From: Takakia lepidozioides
Taxonomy: Eukaryota; Plantae; Bryophyta
Assembly: GCA_030704615.1 (NCBI GenBank)
Contig: CM060732.1
Location: 35,030,001-35,094,000, forward strand
Reading direction: 5' to 3'
DNA: 64,000 bases
The notes under the pieces: generated by a model
Told to the model about the DNA's origin: nothing
Databases searched by the model: none
What the model saw: the letters and a program-made list of their open reading frames with translations, nothing else
Made by a program: the position numbers and the translations under genes
Shown here: piece after piece, positions 3,341 to 59,944 of the stretch
Layout: each line of letters opens with the position of its first letter
Numbering within the stretch: the stretch's first letter is position 1

Positions 3341-3351
3341 TGGTAGGGGTG

Positions 3352-4072
3352 TGTCGCGACCCTTTGCCAAGTGAGGGCGAGGGGTTGGGACACGAGAGGG
3401 GCTGCCCCTGTGGTGGGGGCAGTAGCAGCAATAGGAAAGGGGGCTGAAGCACCCTTGAGGGCCAAAGGCGCTCAAGGGAGCAGAGGCACTCACTAGGGGA
3501 GCCCCGCAAGCCGAGTTGCGGTGGGGGCTCCATGTGGGGGTGGGGGTAGCTTAGGGAGTCGTAGTGGGGGTGGCATAGGACTCGCCATGGGGCTGAGGCC
3601 TTGTGGTGGGAATCGTGGGGAGTCTTGGGGCTCACCATGGTTCATTGGGGCCGTGGTGGGTGGGCCAAGACTCACCGCAACTCATCACAGGGAATCGAGG
3701 GTTGTGGTGGTGGTTCACCATAAAAGGACTTGGTTGTTTGTGAGACCTCTACTGACACCTATGTACAGAAGTATATATATGGAGTAGTAACCCCGAGAAC
3801 GGTGCAAGCCCGTTATGTGACAAAATGCTAGTGGGTAAGCAAGCGAAAAGCAACCAAGGTGTGGGGAGCTATTCCGGACTGCCAACAACCAAAGGGAATT
3901 TCCACCCGATCTGTCGAGGGCCTGGTGGGGGAAGCGAGGGGGACCGTTATGCCCCGGTGAGCGGCTAAAGCTCTGAGTTGGCCCGGCGGTCAGTTTGGGA
4001 GTTAGGCGCGCGCATCAAAGCTAGTAACTATTACTTAAAGGGTCGGGAGCTACCAAAGTGAGGTGCGCGACA
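3352..4072 (+). repeat. Gypsy LTR (3' LTR with PPT remnant), same family as the element at 26965-33321
   Basis: Starts TGTCGCG and ends CGCGACA (terminal inverted repeat). Preceded by PPT-like GGTAGGGGTG (3342-3351). Aligns along its length with 26965-27644. Confidence 0.9.
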
Positions 4073-4259
4073 CCTTCCTAGAGCTCTACACTTTCACCAA
4101 TTTTTATCTCATATGCTGGACACCTGGTTCTGGTTACTCCAGATACCAAGCTGCCATTTGTATCACTCCTCTGCTCTTCACTTTTCTGGATGACTACACA
4201 AACAAGGAGTCGATGTCCTCATCAATTTGTTCTTTTTTGTGGAAACTAACATCCAAGTT

Positions 4260-4350
4260 GTGGCGTGTGCCAGCTTAGGAGCCCTGGAAAAGGGCAAAGA
4301 GGTCCATGTGGATATCATGAAAGGTGGAGGGTTGTTTTCCACCATGATGC
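4260..4350 (+). pseudogene. PLS-class PPR motif fragment
   Basis: ACASLGALEKGKEVHVDIMKGG matches the typical PPR L-motif pattern (ACxxLGALExGKxVH). No flanking PPR motifs. Confidence 0.55.
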
Positions 4351-13017: not shown

Positions 13018-13710
13018 TTATTTTGAAGTGGTGAGTGCAGGCGAATGACGAAGGGGGGTGTCAATGCCTGCATGCCCAGGATGGATTTGGTTGATATTCC
13101 GGCTGTGAGATTGAGATCTTGAGCGGCACCGATGTCGAAGTCCATGACTCTTACATACCTTATGCCTTCTGTGATGTGTGTGACAATATTCGTTCCGCTT
13201 ATGTCTTCTATGGTGTGTTTTACACCAAGTTGCTTTGCGAGAACGACGGCGGCGACGACGAGGAGTCCGTCTTCTCCTCCTCCTCCTTTTACGATGTTTA
13301 CGAGCTGGACGTCGTCTACGATGTGAACGACGGCGACGGCGACGACGTCGATGCTTCCGATGACTTCTACGACGGCGTCTGCGCCGACGTCTTGAATGTG
13401 AACGCCTCGGTCTTCTTCTGTGGTGACGTGAAAGAGAAGTCCCAAAATCATCGTCATTTGGGTCAGCTACTTTGCTCTTGTAGACACTCCCCGATTTTTT
13501 TATTCTGCCCGTTTTTGACAAATGTTTTAGGGCAGAAGCAAGAAGCTTTTTGTTCGTCCCATCAAGTTTTTCTCCATAGTTTTGCTCAAGGTCCTTCCGT
13601 ATTTGGGTCAAGCTAGCACCCCTACGTTGCTTAAGATGAACCATTGCTTGTTGGAGTATATTAAAATATGTGGGACGTATAGGCTTTTTTGAACTTGAAG
13701 TCTTCGTCAT
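13018..13710 (-). CDS. Protamine-like sperm nuclear basic protein 1 (histone H1 winged-helix plus Arg/His/Cys-rich tail), 230 aa, intronless
   Basis: H1 globular domain (PTYFNILQQAMVHLKQRRGASLTQIRKDLEQNY...LASALKHLSKTGRIKKSGSVYK) followed by poly-Arg runs. This is the architecture of the Marchantia PRM-type protamine precursor. Confidence 0.9.
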   Translation of the reverse strand: MTKTSSSKKPIRPTYFNILQQAMVHLKQRRGASLTQIRKDLEQNYGEKLDGTNKKLLASALKHLSKTGRIKKSGSVYKSKVADPNDDDFGTSLSRHHRRRPRRSHSRRRRRRRRRSHRKHRRRRRRRRSHRRRRPARKHRKRRRRRRRTPRRRRRRSRKATWCKTHHRRHKRNEYCHTHHRRHKVCKSHGLRHRCRSRSQSHSRNINQIHPGHAGIDTPLRHSPALTTSK

Positions 13711-13940
13711 TATTGCTAAACTTGGTGTTCAAAAGAAGTCTAAATGAAGATACAAATCCAACAAAAACGGTTCTTCCGGCACCAAAAGGGAAAAAAAGGT
13801 ACAAACTAGCAATGAACACGAGAGCGACACATTGAAGAAGTCCAAGAGTTATAATACAGAAAGATATGAGATCACGAGGGAAGGCTTCCCAAAAGGAAGA
13901 GTGAGAGAATATTGTGAGAAAAACTGGAGAGAAACGGCGG

Positions 13941-15445: not shown

Positions 15446-15488
15446 GAGCGGAAGAGTCGACCCTGTGTCAAGTTAGCACTAATCCATG

Positions 15489-15802
15489 TGTCAAGTTATT
15501 TTACCACTAGTGTGAAACTAGCTAGGAAATAGCTAGCTTTTACATATTGACATTTGGGATTGGCCCAAGTGTCAATCCAGGGGTCAAGGCAGATTTAGGC
15601 CCTGGAGTGGTTATCTTCACGGCAAGCGCGGAAGGCTCATCTTTCTCGAGTTGAGCCTCACCGTGCCTAGCTATGGCGCCGTAGTGTGGATTCCCCATGG
15701 CGTGGGGTGCACTTGGCTTGACTTGTATTTGAGTGATGAGGTTATATATGCATGAGTTTATGCTTCAGATTTGTGAGCTCGTGCTTGTATTCTTCTTCTT
15801 TA
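15489..15802 (+). repeat. Terminal direct repeat A1
   Basis: About 98% identical to 24148-24461. Confidence 0.95.
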
Positions 15803-16604
15803 TCACTAGAGAAAGATGAGCTCGTATCTGTGAGTGCCAGATACGAGTTAGTTGTAGCACTTGTGGTTTTTGCTTGAAAATGAGAGAAACCAAGTTGTTA
15901 TGCAAGGAGCACCGTGGAGCTCTTGGTTGTTAGAAGCGGAGGCGATGTGGGTTACGAGGTGGTAGACCTTGGCATTCGATCTTCAGCTTCAGAGATGAAA
16001 GCACCATGCTGCAGGTAATTCCAGAGCACCTTGATGGTTTCAGATTGTGTACATGCATGAGCAAGCACGATTGAGAAGAGGACCAGTCAAGAGCAGGTTA
16101 TAGTGGCTTTGGTGGCAAAGCTGAGAACTGGACTTGGGAATGCGTTGTGTGAAGGATTGCAAGACCAAGCGAAAGGGCTGATTTGGCTTGGGGCAAATCA
16201 GTGCACTTTGTGGAGTATGGTGAGATTGGGTTTCAATCTCGAGCTTCAGCATTGAGAGGGCTCTTGTCATGGCAAGAGCATGGAACAGGAGCTAAGAGGT
16301 GCGGCAAGGCCATGGAATGTGCACCTAGGGTTTCACAGCTTGGAAGAAGAGCTCTTGCACCACAAGAGAAGTGTCTTGTGGCTGGAAAATGTAAGCCTTA
16401 GGGTTTCAGGAGCTTGGCAAAGGCTGTGGAGTGCTTAGTCTTGTCTTAGAAAGCATCAAGGAGCCAAGGAGCCAAGATAGGGGGCTGATATATCTTGTGT
16501 GAAGAGGTTGCATGTGTGGAGCATGTATTCAGCTCATTGAAGCTTCCATCTTCAAGCTTGGAGGGCAAGCAAGGAAGAGGGAAGGGCTGATTTCCCTTAT
16601 GTGA

Positions 16605-17275
16605 GGGCCTGTGCCGGTGGCCTTCGGGGTCGTGACGGGCTGTGAGGGCCTGTGACGGGCTACGCCGGTGGCCTTGGGGGCTGTGATGGGCTGTGAGGGG
16701 TTGTGACAGGCCATGCCTGAGGCCTTTGGGGTTGTGAGGGGCTGTGTCAGGCCGTGCCTGAGGCCTGTGGGGCTGTGACGGGCTGTGACAGGCTGTGCCC
16801 AGTGGCCTGTGGGGTTGTGACGGGCTGTAAGGGGCTGTGACAGGCTGTGCCCGTGGCCTTTGGGGCTGTGTGGGGCTGTGACAAGCCGTGCCTGAGGCCT
16901 TTGGGGCTGTGACGGGCTGTGAGGGGCTGTGTCAGGCCGTGCCTGAGGCCTTTGGGGCTGTGAGGGGCTGTGGCGAGCTGTGACGGGCTGTGACGGGCTG
17001 TGCCCAGTGGCCTGTGGGGCTGTGACGGGCTGTGTCAGGCCGTGCCTGAGGCCTTTGGGGTTGTGACGGGCTGTGAGGGGCTGTGACAGGCTGTGCGGGG
17101 CTGTGACAGGCTGTGGCGAGCTGTGACGGGCTATGAGGGGCTGTGACGGGCTATGCCCAGTGGCCTGTGGGACTGTGACGGCTGTGACCAGTGAGCTGTG
17201 CGGGCCTGTGCTGGTCTGTGGTGGCCCGTGTTGACCTGTGGACAGCCTGTGCTGACTCGTGGAGGCACTGGTGGA
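16605..17275. repeat. GC-rich ~10-bp minisatellite (GGCTGTGACG/GGCTGTGAGG variants) in the element's 5' leader
   Basis: Dozens of degenerate units read directly. Confidence 0.9.
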
Positions 17276-20200
17276 CTGCCTAAGGACTGGCATGTGGTCT
17301 TGAAGGCCGAATTTTGAAGCTCGTGGAGGGCGGTTTGAGGAGTATCTTCATGATATTCCCATGGTCATGCAAGTGAGGGAAGAAAGGAGAGGAAGAGTGT
17401 TGGGATGAGGGCATGCTGGGGTTAGGCATTGCTTTAGCTTCTCTTCCTTGTAGTTTCCACCCTCTCATTAGGCCAAGACCTTTCCGTAGGTGGAGGCAAG
17501 AGTCAGTCCGGGTTTGGGCTGGGGTGTCCTTGCAGGAGCAACACCGTGGAGTTGTTTTTGGTGTGGGGGAGTTGTCGTTCTGATTTCTTGTGTTTGGATC
17601 CATTCCATACCTGCATGCTTGACTGTGCGCCATGCTAGTTTTGTGTGGGCGCTTGTTTTTATAGGTGATTGGTCCGGATTTGATCACCGGCCAGTCCTAG
17701 AGCATGCTGTCGATGGTGAGGCTGGGGTGATGACCAGCCAGACCATCATTGTTTCTCCTGTGGTGAGGTTGGAGGTGATGACCAGCCAACCATAGGAGTG
17801 CTTGCGGTGGATGCAGGTACAGGTGTAGGCTATGTTAGGAACTTAGTATTCCAAACCATAAGCCGCAACAGGTTCTCTACCCGGTTACCTTGTGGAGAGG
17901 GGGTTAGGGACATGTTCATGACCGGTTGAGTGTCAACACGGAGGTGCCACTAGTTGCTGGGGACAGTGCCAGTTCGAGCACTAGCGATACTAGTAGGTAC
18001 ACGAGACGAGGTGTGCGGTTTAGGCCACCTTCACCTCCTGTGTCTTCCACGGAAGGTTCTGATTCGGATTGTGAATCAGGAGGACTCATACCGGCGGTGC
18101 AAGTTGTTTCTTTGCCATTGTTGTGGGACACAATGGAGGAGATGTATGGAGCTACCAAGGGGCCACGAAGGTACTCTGGGGCGGTGGGCACCATCGAGTT
18201 GGATGATTTTATCCAAGAGTTTGATAGTTGGTGTGATTTGCAGCAAATGCGCAATCCACAACTATTTACGCCGTTCATGGCATGGAAAGGGCTGTTTCAG
18301 CACCTTGAGGGGCCGCCTATGGATGATTACCATGAGTTCAGGCGGGGGCATGAGGTTGAGATCGAGGAGTGGAGGATGTACTGGTCACCCGACTATATCT
18401 CCATCACTAGGGGCACTAGAGCCACGAGGGCAGTGGCTACACCTGCCGCTGCACCGGCAACTTCAGCAAGTAGCAGTGGAACTAGTGGGACTGGTGGTAC
18501 AGTAGCTATGATGTCCACCCAAGCCACTACCGCACCAGCACTAGCACCCGTGCCTGCCTTCAACCCTGTTGTGGAGTTCTTCGAAGACTTGAGAGGGAAC
18601 TACCAAGGGGTGAGGACAGAGAAGTTGCGGAGCTTGCAAGAGTTCCAACGGAAGCCGACCGAGAGCTTGAGGGAGGCTTTCACTCGCATGAGGCGCTTGA
18701 TAAATGTAACCCAAGGGGTTACGGAAGCTCAGGCAGTCCAATTCTGGTATGGGATATTGGACAAGGAGCTGAGGAGAAGGGTGCGGGATGCAACTCTCCT
18801 ACAAGCGGCCCAACCCACCTTAGCAAATGTGTTTTTGCTGGCAGAGCGGATAGAGCTCAACATGGTGGAGGAACGAGTGGTCATGGTGGGATTTGCTAAG
18901 GAGACACCACTGGGTAGTGGTGCTCCTAGCCAACCACTACCTCAACGTGCTCAAGACAACAAGGAGGCTCAGGTGAAGCTCAAGGAAAGGCAGAGAGGAC
19001 CTCAGATGCAGGGGTCTCTCCCTTCATTTGCTGGCCAACAACGGGCGGATGTGGTGTGCTGGACATGTGGAGGACCCCATGTCAAGAATGATTGCCCAGA
19101 GGGAGGCAAAGGGTCGGCACATGCATAGCCTGCACAGTTGCAGTGTGGGCATTGTGGCAAGCACGGGCATGGAGAGGCCCAGTGTTATGGTTTGCATCCT
19201 GAGTTGCGCCCAGGCCAGTTCTAAGGGAACAATGGTGGCTGGGGGCGAGGTGGAGCAGCCCAGAGAGGACGAGGTGGCCAGCCACGAGGCCAAGGGCAAG
19301 CTCAACGTGGCCAAGGACGCGGAGGTCAAGATGTTGACCAAGGCATGGCCAACCGGCTTCAGCAGCTAGAGCAGAGGCTCGCTGCCATGGCTACAGCTCA
19401 GGTGGTACCGGCTCTAAGGCCGGATGGTCCACCTCCTGCTCCTGAGGGAGGAGATATGGGAGGCATGGGATTCATGTGTGGAGCAACACTACCACTAGTG
19501 CAGGTGGAGTCTGCTGCAACCGTGACTCGAGGAGCAGCACGAGTTCCTGAGCCACAAGGTGCAGAGGTGGAGTTGGATCCACAGCGTGGGGAGGCAAGCC
19601 GTCAGGCTAGGCTTCCTCAGTCATTCACATTGGCGGAGACAGTGTCGACGCCATCCATGGCATCTAGTTCTCGCCCGACGGTTACCGAGGCAGAGGTTAC
19701 TATGCCATTGGGGAGAGCTACACGGGTAGCACCACTACCTAGTGTTGCCAAGGCTGCAGCAGCTAGTGTGCTGCTAGGAGCGGCCACATCTGTGTGCCAG
19801 GCTCCATTGTTCTCAACTACCATGATTGGAACGCCGGGGGTAAAACCAGCTGAGGTGTTCAGGCTGGCAGCTACACTCTGTGAGAGTGGGGAGGTTACTT
19901 CATCTTCTGCGGAGATAGTGGGAGGTGTAGTGCCGGAGGGATCCTCGGATTTGAGGGTCAAGACTGCCACGACGGCGCCATGGCAAGCTGCAGCTGCCAG
20001 GTTGATGGAGCTGTCAGCTAGGCCAGCCATTGAACGCGCCATGGTGACACCTGGAGTTGTCATGTTAGACAACCAGGATGGCATTTTCTGTTTGAGTGGA
20101 CCGGCAGGCAAGAGGTACCGGCCACTGCGGGTCTTGTTGGACTCGGGAGCTCAGCCATTGATGTTGGGCAGAGCTGCTATTGCAGGCTTGGGCTTCACGA

Positions 20201-20853
20201 AGGCGGATATGGAGCCTTGTCATTTCCAGATACAGACGTCTCTGGGAGGATCGGAGCAGGCTCGGGGCATGACACGGCGTGAGTTGGCTATCAGACTACG
20301 GCCGGATCACCCTACAGATGGCTCAGTGATGCGAACCAAGGCCATTGTGACAGACGCGGTCTTATACGATGTCCTGGTTGGTGGGGCAGTGTTGTACTCC
20401 ATGGGCTTCACCCTGGATTTTTGGGAGGAGTCAGCTTCCTATAGACCTGCATGGCAGTCAGGGGAGGGCCGGTGTGTGCAGCTCCCTGTGACGTTCATAG
20501 GAGGAGTTGCGGTTGCCCAGCGAGGCAAGATGCCGACACTAGCAGCATTCACAGCGGCAGTGAGTTGGCCTAGAGAGTTGCTTGAGGGCAACGCTCATTC
20601 AGAGGATGTGCCACCTTCGGGAGAGCAGGATGACATGTATGGTATGGCGGAGTTGCCTACCATGGTTGCTCAGACTCCATTGTGGGGCACGAGCAAGGAT
20701 TTGCAGCGGGATGCTGATCGACGGGTGCAACAAGCCTAGGTGGAGGCTTTTGTACCGTCAGGAGAGGAGGAGAGTGTGGGGATTGCACCAAGACCACCTC
20801 AATTGTCTCCATTGGACACCACACCTATTGTGTGGCAGTATCCGGATGAAGGC

Positions 20854-21228
20854 ATTTGTCTCCTGGACTTGTTTGGCGGGATCAGCACCGGATTGGCTGC
20901 TGTGTTACAAGCAGGTGTACGAGTTCGGCGTTACCTGTATGTGGAGAGGGATGAGACTGCACGACGCGTTTCACTTCGCCATGTTGCTCAGTTGGTGCAG
21001 CGGTACCCTGAGTTGTTGTCGGTGTCTGCAATTCGTGGATATCAGCAGGCCTTGCCAGCAGACATTTCGTTGCTGGGGGCGCAGGATTTGGAGCGGGTTG
21101 GCTCCATTGATCTGGTAGTGGCAGGTTGGCCCTGCCAAGGGCATTCATCAGCCGGGCATGGCAATGGATTGCGAGACTCGAGGTCGGGTCTGTTTTGGGA
21201 GATGGTGCGGGTTTTGCGCCACTTGCAG
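20854..21228 (+). other. C5 cytosine DNA methyltransferase N-terminal half (motifs I-V) embedded in pol between protease and RT
   Basis: Motif I LDLFGGIS (FxGxG-like), motif II YVERD, motif III ADI, motif IV IDLVVAGWPCQGHS with catalytic PC at 21130-21135, then GLRDSRSGLFWEMVRVL. Confidence 0.9.
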
Positions 21229-23552
21229 TGGATTCTAGCAGGGGTGGACTTTGCTCGGTGCTACATAGATGACATCATCATCTTTAGTGTTACGATGGAG
21301 GAGCATGAGAGACACCTTTAGGTGGTATTGGAGCGCTTGAGAGCGCATGGATTGAAGTTGCATCCGGGGAAGTGCAAGTTTTTCCACAACCAGATTGAGT
21401 ATCTGGGTCACATGATATATCCTGGAGGATTGGGGGTACAGCAGACTAAGGTAGAGGCCATTGCACAAATTCCACGCCCCACGGATGTGAGCCGAGTTCG
21501 AGCTTTCATGGGGTTGGCAAACTATTATAGACGGTTTGTCAAGAGATTTAATACCATTGCAAAGGCTCTAACCAAGCTGACCAAGGTGGACCAGGAGTGG
21601 CAGTGGAAAGATGAGCAGGAACGAGCTTTTCAAGAGCTCAAGGCGAGGTTGACCTCGGCGCCTATCTTGAGACGACCTATCAGGGGGCGTCCCTTTCAGC
21701 TGCATACGGATTGGAGCATGCTGGGGCTTGGAGCGGTGCTCACACAAGTGGATGATGAGGGAAGAGAGTTCGTAGTGGCTTACGCTAGCCGCTCGAACAA
21801 CGCTGCAGAGGCTAAGTACAGCTCATATGAGGGAGAGTGCTTAGCTGCAGTGTGGGCCGTGGCACACTTCAGGTGCTATCTATACGGCAATCTTTTCACC
21901 CTTGTCACGGATCACCAGCCACTCAAGTGGTTGATGGAGTCAGACAAGCTTACGTGGAAGCTTGCACGGTGGGCACTTATACTCCAAGAGTATGACTTTC
22001 AGGTTGTGCATCGACCGGGTTTGGTCAATCGGGATGCGGATGGATTGAGTCGCAATCCATGCATGAGCCAGCAGGATGACACTGGAGCTCGGTGGCATGG
22101 TGAGACGGACGAGGAGATGGTGCCGGGATAGCACGCATCTGCATTTTTGTGTATCTTGGCATCGGGAGGTCAGATTGGACCTACAACAGGGATGACTGTA
22201 GACGGAGTGTCTGAGAACCCTGAGGCTAGTGATGAGCTAGGTGGTGCCAGAGATATACATGAGGATTCGGCTGTGTTGGACTACCTCCGCACGGGAGACA
22301 CGGCAGCCACTATGACTGCCAAGGAGAGGGATCGGATCCTGCAACGAGCCAAGAGGTTCAAGTGGGAGGGGATACACCTACTTCGAGTGTGGGAGGATGG
22401 TCGGGTGAGGATTGTGCCTCACCCCACACAGCATGCACGGTTAGTGCGGCATGCCCATGAGGAGTTGGGGCATTTTGGAGTGCAACGCACTCACAGTTTA
22501 CTGCAGGGGCAGTATTGGTGGCGTGGTATGTATACAGAGGTGCAACAGTTCGTGGCTAGGTGCATGGTGTGTGACAGGGCGCGTGCTTCATTCAATGCCC
22601 CTACACCACAGTTGCATCCTTTACCAATCATGGATTGGGCTACAGGTGGAGTCTTGACTTCGCAGGACCGTTGCCACTGACTATGCGCCACCACAGATAT
22701 GTGTTGGTGATGGTGGAGCACTTCTCCAAGTGGATTGAGTTGGTTCCATTGCCTGACAAGGCTAGTGAGGGGGCTGCGTATGCATTCTTGGATCATGTGC
22801 TTAGCCGATTTGGTGCTCCAGCTGAGGTACTCACGGACCAAGGGAGAGAGTTCTTGGGGGAGTTTCAGGCTTTGTGTGATAAAGCCTTGATAGACCACCA
22901 CACCACTTCTCGGGATCATCCTGAGGCCGATGGCTTAGTAGAGAGAGTTGTTCAGACGGTGAAGAGGGGTTTGCGCAAGTATGGCTTGCAGAAGGGACAC
23001 CTAGGAGATTGGGATCTTCAGGTTCCTTGGTTAGCCATGGGCTACAGGTTCAGCAAACAAGCATCACTTGCCTCCTTCTCACCATATTTCCTTCTCTTTG
23101 GCCGAGAGCCGGATTTGCCTGCAGTCATTCGTAGGGACACTGCTCAAGTCCTTAACCTTGACGATCCGGACGTGTGGGTACGTGCATGTGATCAGCGTGC
23201 AAAGTTGTTCAAGAAAGTCATGCCCATGGCTTTTGAGAACCTTGCCATTGCATAGCACCGTGATACGTTGAGGTATGCCACTATACGTGGTGGAGGATAT
23301 TGTCCTGGGGTTCGGAGGTTTAGCCCTGGTGACTATGTTTATTTGCAGCAGACTGCTCCTACGACTCTGGATGTTACTGCAGGGCGTGTTATTCTGAGGG
23401 TTCGAGAGGTGTTGCCCTCAGGGGTCCTGATCTTGGAGGGTCGGGATGGCATGACTTGGAAGGACCATGTGCGTAATTGTGTGTCATGTCACCTTCCCAA
23501 TGTCGATGGCAGAGTTGACCCAAACTTGGCAGTGGTACCTGCAAGTTTGAGG

Positions 23553-23687
23553 TGCATGCTCTGTGGGTCTGCCAAAAGGGCAGCCATCATGCTGGTGTGT
23601 GATCGATGCTCAAGGGGTTGGCATATGGGATGCTTGACACCACCTCTTGAGAAGGTTCCTGACAGAGATTGGTTGTGTCCACACTGC
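23553..23687 (+). other. PHD finger (C4HC3) at integrase C-terminus
   Basis: CMLC-x11-CDRC-x4-H-x2-C-LTPPL-x7-WLCPHC: all 8 ligands and the conserved W are present. Confidence 0.92.
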
Positions 23688-24122
23688 TTGGGATAGTGGC
23701 AGTGGACATGACTGGAGGCAGCTAACAAGACATGGGAGGCCAAGCTCATAGGAGTCAAGACATGAGATCCCAAGCTCAAGTTCACAGGTTGCAAGACGGC
23801 GACTAACGATGGGGCAACTCTTGCACCCGGCCTCTTGATCTATCGAGTTCGAGTGTAGTAGAGATAGTGGTGGAGGACTTAGTGAGGCTATGGTCACTAT
23901 CACATCTTGTGGCTACCTGGACTTAGAGGGACCTAAGCACCAGCTAGGGGGGCGATTGTGTGGACTAGTGACTGTCATAGTGGGCAACATAGTGGCAGCC
24001 TAGTGACTGGCTAGTTGTAGCCTAGTGGTTGGACTAGTGGCTGGACTAGTGGTGGACTAGTGGTATACTAGTGTGTGGTGTGCACATTTGTTGTGTGGTT
24101 TTTGGACAACGATGTAGTTGTG

Positions 24123-24482
24123 TAGCGATATGTATGCGCACGACAGCTGTCAAGTTATTTTACCACTAGTGTGAAACTAGCTAGGAAATAGCTAGCTTTT
24201 ACATATTGACATTTGGGATTGGCCCAACTGTCAATCCAGGGGTCAAGGCAGATTTAGGCCCTGGAGTGGTTATCTTCACGGCAAGCGCGGAAGGCTCATC
24301 TTTCTCGAGTTGAGCCTCACCGCGCCTAGCTATGGCGCCGTAATGTGGATTCCCCATGGCGTGGGGTGCACTTGGCTTGACTTGTATTTGAGTGATGAGG
24401 TTATATATGCATGAGTTTATGCTTCAGATTTGTGAGCTTGTGTTTGTATTCTTCTTCTTTAGCGATATGTATGCGCACGACA
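24123..24482 (+). repeat. 3' terminal block B1(24123-24145)-GC-A2(24148-24461)-B2(24460-24482)
   Basis: B = TAGCGATATGTATGCGCACGACA, two identical copies. The B1/A2 junction forms the palindrome GACAGCTGTC. Confidence 0.92.
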
Positions 24483-24504
24483 TATGGAATAGGAGTATAG
24501 TATT

Positions 24505-26799: not shown

Positions 26800-29700
26800 G
26801 TGATATGGATGCTTATACATGTGACCTTAGGGAATTGTTTGATAGTCAAATCAAAGGCGAACCTATTTTGGGAGTGAAAGAGCACTCACTGCGATATCGA
26901 TACTTGCCGATTTTGGTGGCAATTTGTAGAAAGAAGAGAAGGCTTGCCCGCATATGGTGGAAGGTGTCGTGGCCCTTTGCCTTGAGGGCAGGGGGTCGGG
27001 ACGCAGAGGGGCTGCCCCTGTGGTGGGGGCGGTGGCAGCAATAGGTACGGGGGGCTGAAGCACCCTTGAGTGCCCAAGGCACTCAAGGAGGCGGAGGCAC
27101 TCACTAGGTGGAGCCCCGCACACCGGGTTGCGGTGGGGGTGGCATAGGACTCACCATGGGGCGGAGACCTTGTGGTGGGAGTCGTGGGGAGCCTTGGGAC
27201 TCACCACGGTCCAATGGGGCCGTGGTGGGTGGGCCAAGACTCACCGCTACTCATCACCGGAAATCAAGGGTCTTTGTGGTGGTTCGCCATAAAATGGTAT
27301 GGTTGTTTGTGAAACCCGCGCGGACAGTCACAGAAGTATATATAGGCAGTAGTAACCCCGATAACGGTGTAAGCCCGTTGGCGACCAAAAACTAGTGAGT
27401 AAGTGAGCGAGCCGGAAAGCGACCAAGGAGTGGGGAGCTATTCCGGACTGCCATCTACCAAAGGGAATTTCCACTAGGCCCAAATTGGTGGAGGGTCTGT
27501 TGGGAGAAGAAAGGGGGACCGTTATGTCCCGGTGAGCAGCCGAAGCTCCGAGTTGGCCCGGCGGCCAGGTTGGGAGTTAGGCACGCGCATCAAAGCGAGT
27601 AACTATGACTTGAAGGGGAGCTTACCGAAGTGAGGTGCGCGACACTTGGTATCGGAGCTTAGAGTTCAGTACGCGTTCGTCCTTGGGATCGGCCTCATCA
27701 TGGGGTCGGGCAAGCCAAAGCGAAAGCGGAACGGCCCGAAAGATGATGATCCTGGTGAGCCCGATGGGGGCGACGTGTCACCGAAGCGGCCATTTGAGGA
27801 AGCGATGCATGCTTTTGAAAACGAGGCCTCTCAAAAACGGGAGGAATCTGAGGAGTCGGAGCCCGAGGAATCCCTGAGAGCTCCGACAGACCAACAGATG
27901 TCTCCCATGCCAGCAGCCTTTTGGGAAGGGTTGTTGGCGCAGTTTGGCGGGACGTTGAAAGACGTGTTGAAGGCGGCTAATGCCACTTCCGCTAAGGCAA
28001 AGTTTAAGGTGAAGCCTAAGGAACCCAACACCTTCGAGGGCGTCCGAAATCAGAAGGCACTCAACACTTGGCTCTTGGAGCTAGAGCAGTACTTCCGGGC
28101 GGCCAAGTTGAGTGACGAGGATCGGGTGGAAGTGGCTCCCACCTATTTGAGGAGCTATGCTCAACAATGGTGGCAGAAACGCCTTCACGACTGAGGTCCA
28201 AACCCGGAATTCTTGAACTGGAGTGGGTTCAAGGAACTGATGAAGAGACAGTTTGTGCCCCTCAACGCGTCTTGGCTCGTCCGGGACAAGATGAGGAATC
28301 TGAAGCAAACGGATGACATTCGGGGATATGTTCAGGCTTTCAATGTGCTATTACTCGAAGTCGCAGACATGGCAGAACCAGAAACGGTCTTCAACTTTGT
28401 GGCGGGACTGGCCCCATGGGCCACACGGAAGTTGGAGGAGAAGCCACCTAAGACTTTGAACGAGGCAATTGAGAGGGCTGAATGTTTCTCGGATGTCCCT
28501 AGGGGCGAAAGACAAGGCCGTACGGAGCTGAACCACAAGAAGACCCGGTGGGAGGGTGACTCCTTTCGACTGGAAAAGAAGTGGGATAGGCCACGCGGTG
28601 ATAATGGCACGTGGAAATCGAAGGGAGGGCCTTCACACGCCAAGACGACACCCGGTGCTTCGAAAAGAAAATCAGGTGCGATGCCTTATGGCGGACAAAA
28701 GGTGATCTTCGATGGAGTGTGCTTCAATTGTGGGGAGCCCGGGCACATGGCCAAGAAGTGTACGAATCCCCGACAATTGAACTTGACTCGGGCAACCACG
28801 GAGTTGTCCGAAGCTTCCATCAGCCGCTTGGTGGAGGCGGTGGTCGCCAAGACTTGCAAGGTAGGCAACTACTCTTGTGAGTTGTATCAGGAAACTAGCG
28901 CCTTGCGTAAAGGGAGTTAGTTAATGTTGAGTGGGATAATTTCCGCAACTAAGGTGTCGTTGTTGGTGGACACTGGAGCGTCGCACTCCTTCATGACACC
29001 GGCAATGGCACGGAAGCTGGGACTCCCGACAAGTGATGTGGGGGCCTCTATTGAGATGCGTTATGCTAAATGAGAACAACAATTGACGACAAGGTTGGCG
29101 TTCGATGTTCCTCTTCAGCTTGGGAGTTGGGAGGGACGTGAAAACTTCACCATTTGCGAGATCGATGGAGTGGATCTCATTTTGGGGATGACCTTTTTGA
29201 GCAGATCCGGAGCGGTCATAGATGGCCGCAAGAGAGTAGTCACGCTACCGTGTGGGAATGGTGGCGAAGTTTTACGAGTGTCGGAAACGCCCAACCCCGT
29301 GGGAGGGCGAATAAACCTTCTGTCAGCAATGGAGTGGGCCGTGGAGGAGTCACACGAGCCCCAGTTTTTGCTTTATGTAAGACAAGTGAAGGGGAAGGCG
29401 ATGGGGAGCCGAGCCCAGATTGGATCAAGGGGATTTTGGAGAAATACCAGGATGTGATGCCGGAGGATTTACCAAGCGGCTTGCCACCGCGAAGGGGAGT
29501 TGACCACAAGATTGAGGTGATACCGGGATCGGAGCCGCCTGCCAAGGCGCCCTACCGGTTGAGCCACATAGAGTTGGTCGAGCTGAAGACTCAGCTCAAG
29601 GATCTAATGTCAAAGGGGTACATCAGGCCGAGTAAGTCACCTTACGGAGCCCCGGTGCTATTCGCAGACAAGAAGGATGGGACGCTGCGGATGTGTGTCG

Positions 29701-32700
29701 ACTATAGGGCTCTGAATAAGGTGACTATCAAGAACCGGTACCCTTTGCCAAGAATCGACGACCTCTTCGATCGGTTGGCAGGAGCGAAGTATTTCAGCCG
29801 GATCGATTTGCGCTCCGGCTACCATCAAATCCGAGTGGCGGAAGGAGATGAGGAGAAAACTGCATGTAGGACAAGATATGGTTCGTATGAGTTCTTGGTG
29901 ATGCCTTTTGGACTCACCAACGCACCCGTGACCTTTAGCACGCTGATAAACAGCCTTTTCTAGGAGTGGCTAGATGACTTTGTGATCGTGTACGTCGACG
30001 ACAACTTATCGTAGATTTGTATTGTGACACCACGAAGACCCTCGATTCTCGGTGATGAGTCGCGATGAGTCTTGACCCACCCACCACGGCCCCATTGGAC
30101 CGTAGTGAGTCCCAAGATTCCCCACGACTCCCACCACAAGGTCTCCGCCCCATGGTGAGTCCTATGTCACCCCCACTAAATCCCACTAAGCTACCACCAC
30201 CCCTTGTGGAGCCACCCCACCGCAACCGGTGTGCGGGGCTCCACCTAGTGAGTGCCTCCGCCTCCTTGAGTGCCTTGGGCACTCAAGGGTGCTTCAGCCC
30301 CCCGTACCTATTGCTACCACCGCCCCCCACCACAAGGGCAACCCCTCTGCGTCCCGACCCCCTGTCCTCAAGGCAAAGGGCCGCGACACACACCCCTACC
30401 AACAGGGAGTCGATGTCCTCATCGACTTGTCCATTTTGTAGAAACGAACATCCAAGTTGTGGCGTCCCACATCAAGGAGTTTGTTTCCGCACCATGGCGT
30501 CCCATGGCAAAGAACCAAACCCCACACTTGACTCTACTCTCCACTAGCTAGTTCGGCCGACTTCCTCCAAGTCTCGGCCAAGGGTGGAGCCTCTCAAGCT
30601 CCTCCCAGTGCACTCTTCTTGGCCCACTTCACGGCCAAGGAATGATCCTCCCCGATGATCGAATCGCCTTACTGCAACAACATTGCTTGCAACCGCTCAT
30701 GATGTCGCTTTTGACATCACCTTGAGCAAAGGTTCACCTTGAACCCTTTTTTGACTAGGAAAACCTTGAACCAACCGTGCGCCCCAATCACTACGATTGG
30801 GTCCGCCTTGGAATGCTGGCCTGAGGTACGGCAACACGCCGAAGCCGCACTACGACTTCGTCCCGAGGCTACACGATTATAGTACGTGAACGGAAGCACG
30901 TAGCTTCCGCGTTAGCCCGCACTACAAGGCAACCCCCTCGGTAGCGCAGTTATAGTACGCGCACGCGCCAGGTGCGCACTAGCACGTGAACTCCCAAAGA
31001 AGGCGCAAGTTTCCTTGCCCCTTGGATGGGAGTCACCCGATTTTGGCGCTGCGCAAACACACGATTAATCCAATTTACCTCTCCCACTTTTGTAAGCTAG
31101 CATTTTACACACTAGCCAACCATACCATGCATCACCATTCCAAATAAATAAGAGGCGCAACATTTGGAAACCATTTCATTTATAACAAAATTTGTACAAC
31201 ACAAGTTTTTGCAATCGGATTCATGAGCTAGCTAAGCCGGGCTAAGCATGCATTTCCTCCCCCACGATCCAAGGTTGATGTCCCCATCAACGCTTCTTCC
31301 GCTTTTGAGGTCGCCCTTCGAAAGCTGCAACCGCCTCGGATGCGTTTCCCATTTATGAGGCACTGTGCCTGCCTCAAACTTGACTTCCCTCCGCTTCCGA
31401 TTTGCCTGCCGTTCATACCGTTTCCCAGCTTTGGCGATGTTGTACTTTGCGAGCTTCAACAAGCGCTCGCGTTCCTCCAACACCGCTGCTGCTGCCGGTT
31501 CCTCAACGTCTTGGGCAGCCCAACTTGTCGGCACTAGAGGTGCTTTTCCATAGACCAATACGAAAGGGGAAACACCCGTTGCAGAGTGTTTTGTGTTATT
31601 ATAACAGAACTTTGCCGCGTCCAAGTGCTCCACCCAGTCCGATTGGTCCGCCGACACGTAATTCCGCAAGATCTGCTTCACCACGGAATTCACCCTTTTC
31701 GTTTGGCCGTCCATCGTAGGTCGGAAGGCAGTGCTCATCTTGAGCCTCGTCCCCATCTTCCTTCAAAGTGCCCTCCAAAATTTACTCGTAAACTTTGGAT
31801 CGCGGTCCGAGACAATATCCTTCGAGAGTCCATGATGCTTGAAGACGTGGGCGAAGTAAAGTCGCCCCGTCTCCTGTGCCGTTGCCGTCTCCTTGGTGGG
31901 GATGAAATGGCCCATTTACTGAACCTATCCACCACCACCACCATGATTGCATCGAATCCTTTTGATAGCGGCATAGCAGTCATGAAATCCATCGAGACAC
32001 TTTCCCAAGACCCCTCTGGAATCGGCAAGGGTTGTAACAGCCCCGCTTGCTTTTTGTACTCGCTCCGGTTTTGTTGGCATGTGGTGCATGTCTGACATAC
32101 TCCTCGGCCTCCTCCCTCAGTTTGGGCCAGAAATACTCTTTCTTCAAGAGTGTCGCGGTGCGCTTGGCTCCGCCGTGGCCCGCAAGCGGGCCATCATGAC
32201 ATTCTCTCAAGAGACTATCTCTGATCCCTTCCTTCGGCACGTAGAGACGTTTTTGCTTATACCGGAGCAGTCCATTTTGCAAATGGAACTGCGATTTAAT
32301 CCCCATCCTCAAGTCCCGCATCACGGACTTCGCCATCTCATCCTTCCGGTAAGCCTTCCGGATCTTCATTTGGGAGTGCCGTCTCGCCCCTGTACACCAA
32401 CATAAGCTGCTGCTTTCTACTTAAAGCATCGGCCACCACATTGTCTCGTCCCGGTTTGTACTGGATATCCACGTCGAAGACCACCAAAGTATCTTGTCAC
32501 CTAAGTTGTTTTGGGGATAATTTAGGCTGCGTGGCAAAATACTTCACCGTGATATTGTCCGTGAACACCTTCACCGGGTTGGAACCAACATAGTGGCGCC
32601 AAAGCTCAAGGCAATGCACCACCGCCTTCATTTCCTTCTCATGCGTAGGCCACCGTCGCTCTACTTCATTCAGTTTCTTACTTTCATAAGCCACTGGACG

Positions 32701-33755
32701 TCCATCCTTCATGAGTACACCCCTATGGCGAAGTCCGACGCATCCGTATGAATCTCAAATGGATGGTCGAACTCCGGGATTTTGAGGACTGGAGCTTCCG
32801 CCATCCGCTGCTTCAACTCGACAAAAGCTTGGCCACAAAAGGTGTTCCATACCCAAACTTTGGATTTACACAGAAGGTCTGACAGCGGCCCCGCGATCTT
32901 GGCGAAATTTCTCACATACTTCCGGTAATAGGAGGCGAGTCCTAGGAAGGATCGCACTCCCGGGATCGAAGTCAGAGGCTTCCAGTCCAAGATCGCTCTC
33001 ACCTTTCTGTCATCCATTTTGATCACATCCTGTGTAATCACATGCCCCAGGAACTCCACTTTTGTGACCCCGAATTCGCACTTTGAAGCTTTGGCATACA
33101 GTTTCCCTTCCCGCAATTTCCGGAACACCCTTTTGAGGTGCTCCAGGTGCTCCTCCTTTATTTTCGAGTATACCAAGATGGGGAAGAAAGGGGGACCGTT
33201 ATGTCCCGGTGAACAGCCGAAGCTCCGAGTTGGCCCGGCGTCCAGGTTGGGAGTTAGGCGCGCGCATCAAAGCGAGTAATTATGACTTGAAGGGGAGCTT
33301 ACCAAAGTGAGGTGCGCAACAGAAGGAGCCCAGACAGTACATGCACTGGGACTAGTTGATAGAAGCACAAGTTTGGCATATTATCCCTGAAGTCAGAGAC
33401 AAGAAATTTCTACAGAATTATAGAATGACCTATGAGGCTTTCAACAATTTGGTTGATGAGCTTATGCCACTTGTTAAGTCCACTACATTAAATTTTGTAA
33501 GACCACACTAGAGATCCGAAAGATTGTAGCAGTTGTTTCTTATCGATTCGCACATGGCATTTTCCCACCTATAATGGCAGATCGATTCAATGTTGGTCAA
33601 CCATACGCAAATATATTGACATTGTTTGTGTTGCTTTTACGACACCCGAATGTCTATTTAGCAAGTACATTGACACACCGACATGAGAAAGATTAACAAA
33701 ATAAAACATGTTTCAAGCAGATTACGGGGCTGCCTAACATCGTTGGTGCCATATA
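26800..33755 (+). mobile_element. PIF/Harbinger transposase relic split by the Gypsy insertion (parts about 26800-26964 and 33327-33755)
   Basis: RIWWK before the insertion. After it: NYRMTYEAFNNLVDELMPL, RKIVAVVSYRFAHG, ADRFNVG, ITGLPNIVGAI (HARBI1/ALP1-like N-terminal half). Confidence 0.75.
26965..33321 (+). mobile_element. Ty3/Gypsy (chromovirus-like) LTR retrotransposon, full length, with internal inversion
   Basis: 5' LTR 26965-27644 (TG...CA); Met-tRNA-type PBS TGGTATCGGAGC at 27647; gag from ATG 27700 with CFNCGEPGHMAKKC; protease LVDTGAS; [13 protein letters not shown]...YVDD; TSD GAAGG at 26960-26964 and 33322-33326. RH, INT, degraded chromodomain-like remnant and PPT lie on the minus strand in about 30027-33180. 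Confidence 0.93.
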
Positions 33756-34812: not shown

Positions 34813-35466
34813 TCATTTGGAGGTTGTAAGTGCAGGGGATGAACGGATGGGAGTGTCAAGACCCGCGCCGGTATGAAGTTGGTTGTTGTTCCGGCTATGG
34901 GATGCCGACCGCAACCGGCAGCACGTCTTATGCCTTTTGTGATGCGTGCGACAATATTTGTTGCGCCGATGTCGTCTATGATGGGTCTTACAATACGATG
35001 ATTTACGCTCGCGTGTTTTTTTAGTGCGACGACGACTCCTCCGTCTTCTTCTTCTCCTCTTTCGTTGTTGTCGACGATGACGTCGCTTGCGGTGGGACCG
35101 ACGACGACGTCGTCGACGTCGGTGGCTCCGACGACGACGGCGACGACGTCTTGAATGTGAGCGGCGGCGCCGGTGTCGTCTGTGGTGACGAGAAAGTGAA
35201 GATCCAAAATCGTCGGGGTCCTTTACGGAGGTCTTGTACATGTTTCCCGTCTTCTTAATTCTTCCCGTCTTCGAGAGATGCTTGAGAGCGGATGCAAGAA
35301 GCTTTTTGTTGGTGACGTCGAGCTTTTCTCCGTAGTTCTGTTCGAGGTCCTTGCGGATTTGGGTCAAGCTCGCTCCTTTACGCTGCTTAAGATGCACCAT
35401 GGCTTGCTGCAGCATGCTGAAATATGTGGGGTGCAATGGTTTCTTTGAGCTTGTAGTTTTCGTCAT
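34813..35466 (-). CDS. Protamine-like sperm nuclear basic protein 2, 217 aa, intronless paralogue
   Basis: H1 winged-helix nearly identical in protein to 13018-13710 despite many synonymous changes. Poly-Arg tail and the same C-terminus SPALTTSK. Confidence 0.9.
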   Translation of the reverse strand: MTKTTSSKKPLHPTYFSMLQQAMVHLKQRKGASLTQIRKDLEQNYGEKLDVTNKKLLASALKHLSKTGRIKKTGNMYKTSVKDPDDFGSSLSRHHRRHRRRRSHSRRRRRRRRSHRRRRRRRRSHRKRRHRRQQRKRRRRRRRSRRRTKKTRERKSSYCKTHHRRHRRNKYCRTHHKRHKTCCRLRSASHSRNNNQLHTGAGLDTPIRSSPALTTSK

Positions 35467-35627
35467 GGTTGTGCAATGTTCCTACCCGAAAACACAATCG
35501 GTTTAGAGAATAATGGAAGGAATAGAGGCCGCCAGTTTCTAAAAGAGAGAAAAAATGGGACCAAGAGAAGTTGCCTAAGGGAAGAGGGTGAGAGGGAGTG
35601 TGAGAAAGAGGAGAGGTAAATCGAAGG

Positions 35628-37725: not shown

Positions 37726-38826
37726 ATGAAGAATTACGTCGTAAATGCAGTTTTTTAAGAGCTATATATATATTAATTCATTATTAAATGCTCCCATTTA
37801 ATTAAGAAAGTTTTGTTAAATTAATATTACATATTTGTAGTTTGAAATATAATGTTACAAACATAAAATTCTTTAATTAATATATTCAAAATCTAAATTA
37901 AATTCTTCAAGCCAAATTTCACCATAGTTTGTCACTAAAATATCATAAATTGATCCATCAAAATTGTCACAAAACTTGTCACCAAAAATTGTCACCAAAA
38001 ATTGTCACCAAAGTACTTTAGACAATATGAAGCCAAAGTCCATCTCATAAAAAGAGATGGTTATGTACTTCAAATTTCTAAATCTCTCACTTATTTCAAC
38101 ACTGCCTTCTCCTGGTGTCTCCAAATCTATAATTTTGAATCCCAGTACTTCTCCACTAATGCCGATATTGAATACCCCAAAGACCTTTGTATTTCTGAAT
38201 TTCCTGGTGTAAAAAGCCCTTTTATTACACAATTTTTACTATTATTTTTAATACAAAATAAAAAACCAATTAATTGAAAACATACATATTACCTCTCTTG
38301 TTAGGCTAAAGCTGCCTCCGTTTGTGAGCTTCTTGTGTACTCTGTGTTGTTGTGAGAATCCTTGTGGTTGTGCACACAACATTTTTGACAAGAGCGGTGG
38401 CAGGTTTCTCAGTTTTAAAGACAGTCACCAATTGCTGATAAATAGAATAGAATTCAGGGTAGAATGACAGAACTTGGCTATCTTGATCGCAACAGGAACT
38501 ACAAGCACACTAAAAAGAAAACAAAGAACCTATGTTCACCGAGCTTACTGCAACGGACCGAGTTCAACCAAGTTCACGAGCTCATCTCCACAAATGGTTT
38601 AAATGCGTAGATGATAGATGATAACAACACAACTTGGTAGAAGAATTAAGAAGCTGTCAACTTTCTCTTACATCCAACAATTTATCAAATACATCTATCT
38701 TCACGTGTTGGATATAACGGTTTTAGACCATGATATGGAAGGAAAGGTATTTACCCTCAATTGAACCCTTTTTTCTAGATTGATATTTGTGGGTGGATAT
38801 TTATGGGCCACAATGTATAGGCAGAG

Positions 38827-39385
38827 ATTCGAACCCACAACCTCCTAAAGTCTAAAATGAACTACCTATTTCAAATCCAAAAAACATTTTAGCTTTGGAT
38901 TGAACCCACAACTTCCTGAACTCTAGAATGAACTACCTATTTCAAATCCAAAAATCATTTTAGCTTAAGGTCTAAGCTACTTTTAGCCTTAAGATACTTG
39001 TAGACCCAAGCGAATGCAAAGACCTGCCTTTTGGGATTGAACCCACAACCTCTAATCTTAAGGTCCAAGCTATTTTTTGCCTTAAGATACTTGTAGACCC
39101 AAGCGAATGCAAAGACCTTGCTTTTGGGGATTGAACCCACAACCTCCTAAACTCTAAAATGAACTACCTCTTTCAAATCCAAAAGACCTTAAGGTCCAAG
39201 CTACTTTTAGTTACTTGTAGACCCAAGCAAATGCAAAGACCTTGCCTTTGGGGATTGAACCCACAACCTCATGAACTCTAAAATGAACTACCTATTTTAA
39301 TCCAAAAGGCCTTAAGGTCCAAGCTACTTTTAGCCTTTTGTCCTTAAGGTACTTGTAGACCCAAGTGAATTCGAAGACGTTGCCT
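38827..39385 (-). repeat. Complex tandem array of a B-box-containing tRNA-like unit (5 copies)
   Basis: GATT(C)GAACCCACAAC at about 38827, 38898, 39035, 39129 and 39253, interleaved with a CTTAAGGTCCAAGCTA...TACTTGTAGACCCAAG unit. Confidence 0.8.
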
Positions 39386-41708: not shown

Positions 41709-42872
41709 TCAAGAGGGCTCAGAGGCACGAGGGGATGTGAGAGGAAAGAGAGTCAATAGTTCCGGCTGGGGCCGCGGACGCTCGAAAGTTGGAGAAGGGT
41801 GCAAGAAGAAGTGTGCATCCTTCTCTCTCCTCTCGTCAAAATCACGGGGACTGGGTTTCAAGCCTGTGTATCCCTCATACGTGGTGGGCGTAGTAGGGGC
41901 ATATGGGTTCTCGAACACATCCAACGGGGTAACAGGACTCGGCACCAGAGCTGGAAACTTCAGGTGTTTTGGGGACAAGCCCTCTCCTGAAGTAGGGGAA
42001 GCTAAGCCGCCGTACCCAGCATTCCCTCGTCTAAACGCCGCAGCTGGCCCCAGCCCCTTCACCTCGAGCTTCCGTAGATTGGACTGCCTTCTCTCATGCA
42101 GCTTGAACGAAGACCGGCGTGCACCCAGGTCCCCCACAGGCTTGGGGATCATGCCCCCGAAAGTGTTGTCCACAAGCTTGTGCGGTCCAGAACTCTCAAG
42201 ACTTCTGGATGCTTGCCTTGACGGTAAAGTGATAGGCAATTTTTCCCCATCAGTATCCGACGCACCTGTAAGCTTCTGCACCAACTCCCGGAAGCTGGAG
42301 GTATCCACTTGGACAAACGTAGTTGTTGACGTAAAATGCTGCTCCTTTTCTCTGTCGTGATGACTTGCCACATTTGGTATAGACCCGGGTCCTACACCAG
42401 AAGGGCTTTGAGGCTGCATCCTGGAAGAGGATGGAGACGACAATGACGGAGACACATTTGCAAAGCCCCCACCTCCAGCACCAGCTTTCTTCATCACCGC
42501 TGCGTTCACACAACTGGGACTCCGAATGGATTTGTCACGGGACCGTAAATCCCCCTTCTTACAATCCTCACTCGTGGAAGACGCTGCGTCACTGCCAATG
42601 CTTTCAACACAAGGAATAACCTGAGCTTGTGAACCACTAACGCTTGGAGGGGTTGGAGGGCGAAAGAAATAATCAAAACTGGGGCCTTGCTGCCGTATCT
42701 TGAAGTGAGGCTGGGAGGTACCTTCGCTATGGAAGGCGACGGGAATTAACTTTTGAGGTGCAGTAGACACCGGCTGATGCGAGAAGCCTAAGAGCTGCAG
42801 TACTGCATACGTCTGGCCATTACGGTCGGGAAGCGCAATGGGGACACAAACTCGAGGACCATCACTCTCCAT
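41709..42872 (-). CDS. VQ motif-containing protein (VQ4/MVQ-like), 387 aa, intronless CDS
   Basis: TTFVQVDTSSFRELVQKLTG (FxxxVQxLTG), FKLHERR, LVPSPVTPL, FFLHPSP and PELLTLFPLTSPR blocks typical of the MPK-substrate VQ subgroup. Confidence 0.93.
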   Translation of the reverse strand: MESDGPRVCVPIALPDRNGQTYAVLQLLGFSHQPVSTAPQKLIPVAFHSEGTSQPHFKIRQQGPSFDYFFRPPTPPSVSGSQAQVIPCVESIGSDAASSTSEDCKKGDLRSRDKSIRSPSCVNAAVMKKAGAGGGGFANVSPSLSSPSSSRMQPQSPSGVGPGSIPNVASHHDREKEQHFTSTTTFVQVDTSSFRELVQKLTGASDTDGEKLPITLPSRQASRSLESSGPHKLVDNTFGGMIPKPVGDLGARRSSFKLHERRQSNLRKLEVKGLGPAAAFRRGNAGYGGLASPTSGEGLSPKHLKFPALVPSPVTPLDVFENPYAPTTPTTYEGYTGLKPSPRDFDERREKDAHFFLHPSPTFERPRPQPELLTLFPLTSPRASEPS

Positions 42873-59868: not shown

Positions 59869-59944
59869 ATTGTGGTGCTAATGTGTGTTAATTATAAATA
59901 TATATTTTGTTTGAGGAAGGTTGGAGTTAGGCATTTGCCAGTTA

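Follow-up and report, generated by a model that had tools for sequence, protein, structure and literature searches.

The window examined here, a stretch of 64,000 nucleotides from Takakia lepidozioides, contains at 15489 to 24482 what is almost certainly a decayed Ty3/Gypsy retrotransposon, and this element carries a DNMT3-like cytosine-5 DNA methyltransferase (DNMT) ahead of its reverse transcriptase (RT). Its domains run in the order gag, protease (PR), DNMT, RT, RNase H (RH), integrase (IN), and PHD finger, and lie between repeats that are split into parts A and B. The PR-RT-RH-IN order with a DDE integrase and the TG..CA termini with a short target-site duplication are those of a Ty3/Gypsy element, whereas the split A/B repeats take the place of two complete, equal long terminal repeats (LTRs). 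A single frame from 17908 to about 22630 holds gag, protease, the methyltransferase motifs, and the RT/RNase H remnant. The original prediction had placed cytosine-5 methyltransferase motifs I to V, with the catalytic PCQ, in the gag-protease frame ahead of RT, and this is confirmed. It also gave a repeat identity of about 98%, which agrees with the value found below; the repeats are a split A-ORF-B-A-B set (ORF, open reading frame) rather than ordinary LTRs. The prediction gave the element too small an extent (17926..23696) and overlooked the PHD finger after the integrase. The features of the element are as follows.

15485..15488: target-site duplication on the left, CATG, which differs by one transition from TATG on the right
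15489..15805, plus strand: repeat A1, which begins TGTC and ends CA; the promoter and transcript start likely lie inside it, because relatives have a TATA box about 30 nucleotides upstream of the priming segment
15635..15650, plus strand: predicted self-primer segment in A, complementary to the primer-binding site
15806..15821, plus strand: primer-binding site, abutting the 3' end of A1; it has no TGG start and is therefore not tRNA-like
15822..17925, plus strand: long 5' leader with a tandem array of a 10-nucleotide unit at about 16600-17190, spanned by contigs of other copies
17908..19221, plus strand: gag, with two zinc-knuckle-like Cys/His motifs and a first ATG at 18133, interrupted by stops
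20050..20500, plus strand: aspartic protease (LLDSGA), PF13650 E 0.042, under the cut-off; it resembles the protease region of related loci
20848..21228, plus strand: DNMT3-like cytosine-5 methyltransferase, motifs I to V, truncated (Pfam and sequence comparison)
21228..21231, plus strand: in-frame deletion junction at which about 1.48 kb is gone, with motifs VI to X, the conserved stop, and the RT N terminus lost
21232..22060, plus strand: RT remnant, connection, and RNase H; YIDD at 21262-21273; PF17917 E 1e-35
22250..23250, plus strand: integrase, H2C2 and rve core; PF17921 E 1.2e-16 and PF00665 E 1.2e-13; frameshift near 22631
23553..23696, plus strand: C-terminal PHD finger and final stop; PF00628 E 1.3e-10
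23946..23952, plus strand: polypurine tract, directly 5' of B1 and positioned as in related loci
23955..24145, plus strand: repeat B1, with the 3' end CACGACA
24142..24151, plus strand: internal palindromic junction GACA-GC-TGTC, in which right-end sequence is joined to left-end sequence; predicted integrase attachment site
24148..24461, plus strand: repeat A2, identical to A1 at 309/314 positions (98.4%, 5 differing sites)
24460..24482, plus strand: repeat B2, of which only the last 23 nucleotides are left here; ends GACA
24483..24486: right target-site duplication, TATG

The gag profile match (PF03732, E 0.0037) lies under its Pfam cut-off, and the top solved-structure match of the RT remnant is Ty3 RT (E 1.5e-36). 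If a rate of about 1e-8 per site per year is borrowed from elsewhere, the A1/A2 divergence of 5/314 would put the insertion at less than 1 million years ago.

A dead copy of a methyltransferase-bearing family

The window copy is dead. It has six premature stops (five in frame ahead of the integrase frameshift, at 19126, 19222, 20737, 21319, and 22129, and one at 23253), the frameshift in the integrase, and the in-frame deletion of about 1.48 kb, by which motif V became fused with ILAG..YIDD of RT. The motif V and ILAG anchors are 3 nucleotides apart in the window, compared with 1,476-1,479 nucleotides in the six of ten related loci for which both anchors are readable, and the copy does not encode a complete cytosine-5 methyltransferase domain because motifs VI to X are deleted. 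In the sequencing runs of the host, contigs diverge from the window at 21228 (46, 14, and 3 cases in runs X1, X3, and X5, respectively) and continue into the motif V-VI linker known from relatives, while X5 contigs join the window at 21230, coming from the RT stretch upstream of ILAG. The window's stop positions are absent from most contig depth in these runs, and summed contig depth, which is not a copy number, is similar for the DNMT bins and the other domains. The contig depth and the loose ends at 21228 together indicate that family members in this host normally carry the DNMT and that the window copy lost about 1.48 kb. Contigs of run X1 also skip 16012-16153 and 17372-17817 with GT..AG ends, the intervening letters being not known, as if some copies went back to transcripts from which introns in the 5' leader had been removed.

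The methyltransferase piece that remains in the window matches PF00145 at 20740-21318 (E 1.4e-10; 41.5 bits against a cut-off of 22), as the original prediction had anticipated, with motif I (LDLFGG) at 20863-20880 and the catalytic PCQ at 21130-21138 (numbered I to X in the usual scheme). By itself, this truncated piece has a DRM-type entry, 4onj, marginally at the top among solved sequences. At the family level, motifs I to X are unpermuted, with the catalytic Cys, ENV, and RxR, and they are entire in named Marchantia and Calypogeia proteins. For one natural complete domain (P0002), DNMT3A is the closest by sequence (E 6e-12; HhaI, E 0.004), and a structure model with a pLDDT of 92.9 has DNMT3A as its best Foldseek match (E 1.8e-18; TM 0.85 by target length), the top matches all being DNMT3 (DNMT3A/B) and not DRM, DNMT1, or bacterial enzymes. 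As modeled, the family domain folds like DNMT3A.

The catalytic residues are well conserved. Among 51 diverse sequences, catalytic Cys140 and motif VI Glu183 are invariant and motif VIII Arg223 and Arg225 nearly so; in decayed loci the Cys is intact in 75/77 segments, the Glu in 70/75, and the two Arg in 50/74 and 53/73, with 6 of 46 full-length domains free of stops. GWECQ replaces GWPCQ in 80 of 197 near-complete related domains. Judged from codon comparisons, the family methyltransferase is under purifying selection with a dN/dS (ratio of nonsynonymous to synonymous substitution) of about 0.12, the median between the window and 64 loci (62 unsaturated) being 0.115 for DNMT motifs I to V and 0.084 for the integrase, although these values are only approximate because synonymous sites are near saturation. 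The three tests by which the original prediction could have been refuted (a PF00145 match, presence of the domain in other family copies, and purifying selection on the catalytic motifs) all came out for it.

The nearest solved domains of the PHD finger include those of CHD4, KDM5B/KDM5A, PHF12, ATXR5, BAZ2, and UHRF1. Most such PHD fingers read unmethylated H3K4, as does the ADD domain of animal DNMT3. The finger stands where chromoviruses such as Tcn1 and Chlamyvir have a chromodomain after the integrase.

Relatives and the stop before reverse transcriptase

Searches with the window DNMT returned 61 longer homologues, with Marchantia polymorpha, Calypogeia fissa, and Sphagnum troendelagicum as named sources, and many of them carry motifs I to X. 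Identity to Marchantia proteins is 79% for the DNMT and 67% for gag (both with P0004) and 78% for RT-RNase H, values that make a bryophyte host likely. We also compared 80 metagenome loci, all picked by their DNMT and several of them one insertion assembled twice. RT is the next domain after the DNMT on the same strand in 54 of the 80, most others ending or breaking earlier; long loci read gag-PR-DNMT-RT-RH-IN-PHD, and by eye their motif V-VI linker resembles that of the Sphagnum protein P0017.

An in-frame stop separates the DNMT from RT in all 45 distinct loci that cover the linker (TAG in 31 and TAA in 14, with CAA next). The DNMT therefore terminates the gag-protease frame, contrary to the proposed place inside pol. 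A stop at the equivalent place is found in L025, L076, L077, and L078, and in the first three of these its context is CAR-YYA of the tobacco mosaic virus (TMV) type, a readthrough signal (PMC2754532). Many database proteins terminate about 80-115 residues past motif X, while in the more distant relatives P0062 and P0073 the DNMT and RT share one open frame. The stop is probably leaky.

Wider searches found more distant relatives in Closterium and in the chlorophytes Monoraphidium neglectum and Hariotina reticulata, with 269 clusters (50% identity) at E 1e-30 or better. The description of the element as a land-plant-type Gypsy thus stands insofar as the family is one of bryophytes, whereas the clade is one of the green lineage and resembles the algal element KnitGypsy-Dnmt3. 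Among 295 proteins, the DNMT lies before RT in 31 and after RT in 62, and Monoraphidium P0106 has it after RNase H and ahead of integrase. A PHD pattern 3' of the integrase was found in 44/50 after-RT and 2/13 before-RT proteins with an integrase match, several of which are cut short. In P0106, residues 2260-2407 contain a PHD finger followed by a weak Tudor-like match (PF21743, E 3.8e-05, under its cut-off), so that its integrase possibly carries two chromatin readers.

In an RT tree (FastTree), elements with the DNMT before RT form one clade (support, 1.0), and in the DNMT tree they group together except for P0119 and P0127, two long branches. Both trees are midpoint rooted and leave out host DNMT3 and reference RTs, and the RT tree consists of DNMT-bearing elements only. 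Protein searches with the family domain returned no Klebsormidium-named sequence among the matches. Since neither these nor host DNMT3 sequences were retrieved, a single capture of the DNMT across the green lineage is a lead and not a result. Among viral contigs, 13 pattern matches were found and none was confirmed, and an Atlas search gave no usable match.

Split ends, probable self-priming, and flanking sequence

The A1-ORF-B1-A2-B2 layout of the window is shared by L059, L066, and L071. Termini are TGTC..(G)ACA, and 4-bp target duplications are exact in six of seven related loci with both ends, L016 and the window each showing one transition; L059, whose left end is truncated, was excluded from this count. 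CA-GC-TG joins B1 to A2, even in the distant L076, while L077 has CA-GT-TG at this place. The clear TG..CA termini and 4-bp target duplications led us to reject a terminal inverted repeat running into the flanks. At 15466-15474, 23 nucleotides upstream of the left end, the first 9 bases of the element occur once more as TGTCAAGTT. In L010 (6332-6517) and L012 (6342-6527), the inverted right end of another copy (B and polypurine tract) stands in place of A1, and family members therefore insert into or rearrange with each other.

Self-priming is suggested by a complement of the primer site inside A, which pairs at 15 of 16 positions in the window, a match equaled by none of 2,060 control 16-mers; the RNA fold of this pairing has a z of -6.5. 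Across 16 loci, the complement is best or tied-best at the expected place, about 30 nucleotides after a TATA box, in 12. L077 has a different perfect 15-mer complement (by eye), so that three different sequences, those of the window, the main locus group, and L077, maintain the pairing. ARAGORN found no tRNA genes. The RNA 5' end very probably primes reverse transcription in the manner of Tf1, in which an 11-nucleotide segment serves for self-priming.

The two primers define a linear cDNA, BA-ORF-BA, that differs from the integrated form. We propose that the integrase cuts the internal CA-GC-TG junction and not the free ends. Cutting there would give a short A-ORF-B form directly, while joining of the right end to the start of B, followed by the cut, would give the long, copyable A-ORF-B-A-B form. 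We find this route as a whole somewhat likely. Among 15 distinct right ends, five are long (B followed by A), nine are short (stopping after B), and one is unclear, and four short-form loci have both ends and the target duplication. Contigs of other copies link the end of A to the start of B (15803/15804 to 23953/23955), although these joints are few, have sides of 22-27 letters with slight differences, and do not address joint heterogeneity. The identity of B1 to its own B2 is not above that to other copies in two of four loci, and in the remaining two it is roughly level with that value or exceeds it by a little. The B1 and B2 groups differ at 2 of 115 columns; recopying of B2 from B1 fits these data, which have little power. 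A terminal B-A-primer-site run in L077 may be an assembly collapse and was not used as evidence for circles.

Two results count against these readings of the ends. Only 12 of the 16 loci have their best or tied-best primer complement where it is expected, and the mirror form A-B-A-ORF-B occurs in 0 of 21 left ends (18 distinct); because a plain two-LTR circle predicts the mirror about as often as the long form, the integration route requires an asymmetry that it does not itself provide. The absence of the mirror form also favors a different account of the ends, in which short copies arise by later B1-B2 recombination, which would likewise preserve the target duplication, and the long form is rebuilt through a circle as in DIRS and Ngaro elements, with the ends restored from the internal junction. 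The repeat layout is indeed that of tyrosine-recombinase elements, as far as the available text of the published accounts goes (PMC7192593, PMC5890265). However, the element has a DDE integrase, TG..CA ends, and 4-bp duplications, Pfam finds no tyrosine recombinase, the polypurine tract lies exactly at the start of B and the primer site exactly at the end of A, and a 9:5 ratio of short to long forms among the 15 right ends is high for recombination over 115 bp of homology. We regard this account as possible but doubtful.

Elsewhere in the window, an ordinary Gypsy element at 26964-33321 (with a related repeat at 3341-4266) lacks a methyltransferase between protease and RT. Of its two halves, gag-PR-RT lies on the plus strand and RNase H-integrase on the minus strand, with inverted repeat arms at 26964-27281 and 30028-30389, the mark of an internal inversion. 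The DNMT-bearing element is located between two paralogous linker-histone H1-like open frames on the minus strand (13021-13728 and 34816-35481), which are 69% identical in DNA, have repetitive tails, and could, we presume, be protamine-like H1 derivatives. A 419-codon open frame at 41712-42968 (minus strand) contains a plant VQ motif (PF05678, E 1.1e-11), and unrelated tandem arrays, degenerate and built of units of about 60-150 nucleotides, lie at three places, 38780-39390, 59255-59890, and 61720-62840.

Proposed action of the methyltransferase and known systems

We lean toward the view that the family methyltransferase acts inside the particle, where it would methylate the newly made cDNA of its own element. 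Leakiness of the stop would quite likely yield Gag-PR-DNMT at Gag amounts and RT-RH-IN-PHD by readthrough only, and this readthrough would make the DNMT part of the abundant Gag-side product. Acting on the cDNA, likely at CG, the enzyme would produce host-like or premarked DNA, a step that we favor by a little. The PHD finger may steer the integrase to chromatin with unmethylated H3K4, a suggestion for which the case is evenly poised. In the available text of de Mendoza et al. (2018), methylation of cDNA is proposed, and retrotransposon DNMT3s of Symbiodinium are described as carrying out de novo CG methylation in yeast (PMC5890265).

Several results weigh against methylation of the cDNA or against its supports. 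The Klebsormidium domain gave no methylation in yeast, a result that the authors call inconclusive (PMC5890265, available text). After the stop, 42 of the 45 loci read CAA-CCC, one base off CAR-YYA. Loci selected by their DNMT cannot reveal copies without it. The DNMT tree unites the before-RT group at 0.475 only, with P0119 and P0127 outside. Furthermore, the proportion of synonymous differences (pS) between the window and the loci is 0.69, near saturation, and between close decayed copies dN/dS is 0.46-0.6 in all domains, which we ascribe to decay after insertion.

Alternatively, the methyltransferase, once freed from Gag-PR-DNMT, could act on the chromatin of the host, either where the element inserts or throughout the genome, and not on cDNA in the particle. 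Its place before the conserved stop would make it abundant and separable from the integrase, and the element carries a chromatin-reading PHD finger. However, the chlorophyte type of arrangement, with the DNMT after RNase H and ahead of integrase in a polyprotein that also includes RT, fits action on cDNA, and we consider this alternative unlikely. It is similarly improbable that the domain is retained because it binds nucleic acid or has a structural part in the particle (such as shielding the internal junction), or because it methylates RNA, and not for DNA methylation. The inactivity of the Klebsormidium domain in yeast and the frequent replacement of GWPCQ by GWECQ would suit such a role, whereas the invariant catalytic Cys and Glu, the nearly invariant motif VIII Arg pair, and a predicted fold that is that of DNMT3, a DNA enzyme, argue against it. 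A one-off capture of a host DNMT3 or DRM fragment, or a chance fusion, as the shortened domain abruptly fused to RT might suggest, can be practically dismissed, since the fusion is a deletion and homologues, host contigs, and related loci contradict it, the domain having the equivalent position in bryophyte relatives of several genera and in those from Closterium, and other copies running on into motif VI.

Taken together with methylation of the cDNA, these features could tentatively describe a green-plant-wide Gypsy lineage in which the attachment site has shifted to an internal palindrome, a permuted, end-joined cDNA is integrated, and a Gag-level DNMT3 methylates that cDNA. A conserved CpG beside the junction might then be methylated, which would select the junction to be cut and protect the chromosomal one. 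If this were true, the two domain orders, with the DNMT before RT in streptophytes and behind RNase H in chlorophytes, would indicate a single, ancient capture that is not specific to Klebsormidium. What DNMTs carried by retrotransposons do has been a question since 2018, and no activity could be obtained from the sole plant-side case. Marchantia polymorpha, in which copies occur, is a genetic model whose methylation mutants show transposon reactivation, and the question can be taken up there. The split ends lead to testable predictions about the copying of an integrase element whose repeats are split as in DIRS. Many Marchantia gene models annotated as "hypothetical" or "DNA (cytosine-5)-methyltransferase" belong to these elements and can make counts of host DNMTs too high.

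Within the literature searched, which excluded most subscription papers, DNMT-carrying elements of the KnitGypsy-Dnmt3 kind are described from algae only, and no bryophyte description was found among texts on DNMT retrotransposons, split repeats with an integrase, or PHD fingers. Marchantia is unmentioned in the main text and three supplements of de Mendoza et al. (2018) (PMC5890265), the available parts of Sarre et al. (2025) and of a 2026 preprint speak of "streptophytes" with land plants unnamed, and those of PMC11982613 and 10.1101/363937 have no mention of such elements.

Published systems resemble the family in parts, as far as the available portions of the sources go. SymbioDIRS-Dnmt3, PAT, and Ngaro share the A1-ORF-B1-A2-B2 layout, and the SymbioDIRS DNMT3 methylates CG (PMC5890265, PMC7192593), but the window family has a DDE integrase, an aspartic protease, TG..CA ends, and 4-bp duplications, with no tyrosine recombinase found. 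Tf1/Sushi elements and the plant Tcn1 clade are Ty3/Gypsy elements known for self-priming, with a primer site complementary to the 5' end of their own RNA (PMC6317226); they have ordinary LTRs and chromodomains, in contrast to the split repeats, PHD finger, and DNMT seen here. EpiLTRs and DAM-LTRs are likewise Gypsy elements with a DNA methyltransferase and a chromatin-reading domain, but their DNMT is sister to DNMT4, Dam is also present, and the reader is a chromodomain (bioRxiv 10.64898/2026.05.21.726589). Foamy virus integrase cuts a palindromic LTR-LTR junction, with two bases between CA and TG, into integration-ready ends with 2-nucleotide overhangs (PMC1180852), although that junction arises in circles from LTR ends, whereas in the window family the integrated element itself contains it.

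Of the published systems, the nearest is KnitGypsy-Dnmt3 of Klebsormidium nitens, described by de Mendoza et al. (2018) as under purifying selection and with A-coding-B-A-B repeats (PMC5890265). The two share the Gypsy domain set, an unpermuted DNMT3-type domain under purifying selection, and the repeat arrangement. They differ in that the window family occurs in land plants and has a conserved stop that splits the DNMT from RT, whereas the authors put both in one ORF in KnitGypsy-Dnmt3; the available text on it has no mention of a PHD finger, self-priming, target duplications, or an internal junction. For this kind of element, the portions of the texts searched do not describe the land-plant range, the conserved stop of leaky type, the predicted self-priming site, the 4-bp duplications, or the ends around CA-GC-TG.

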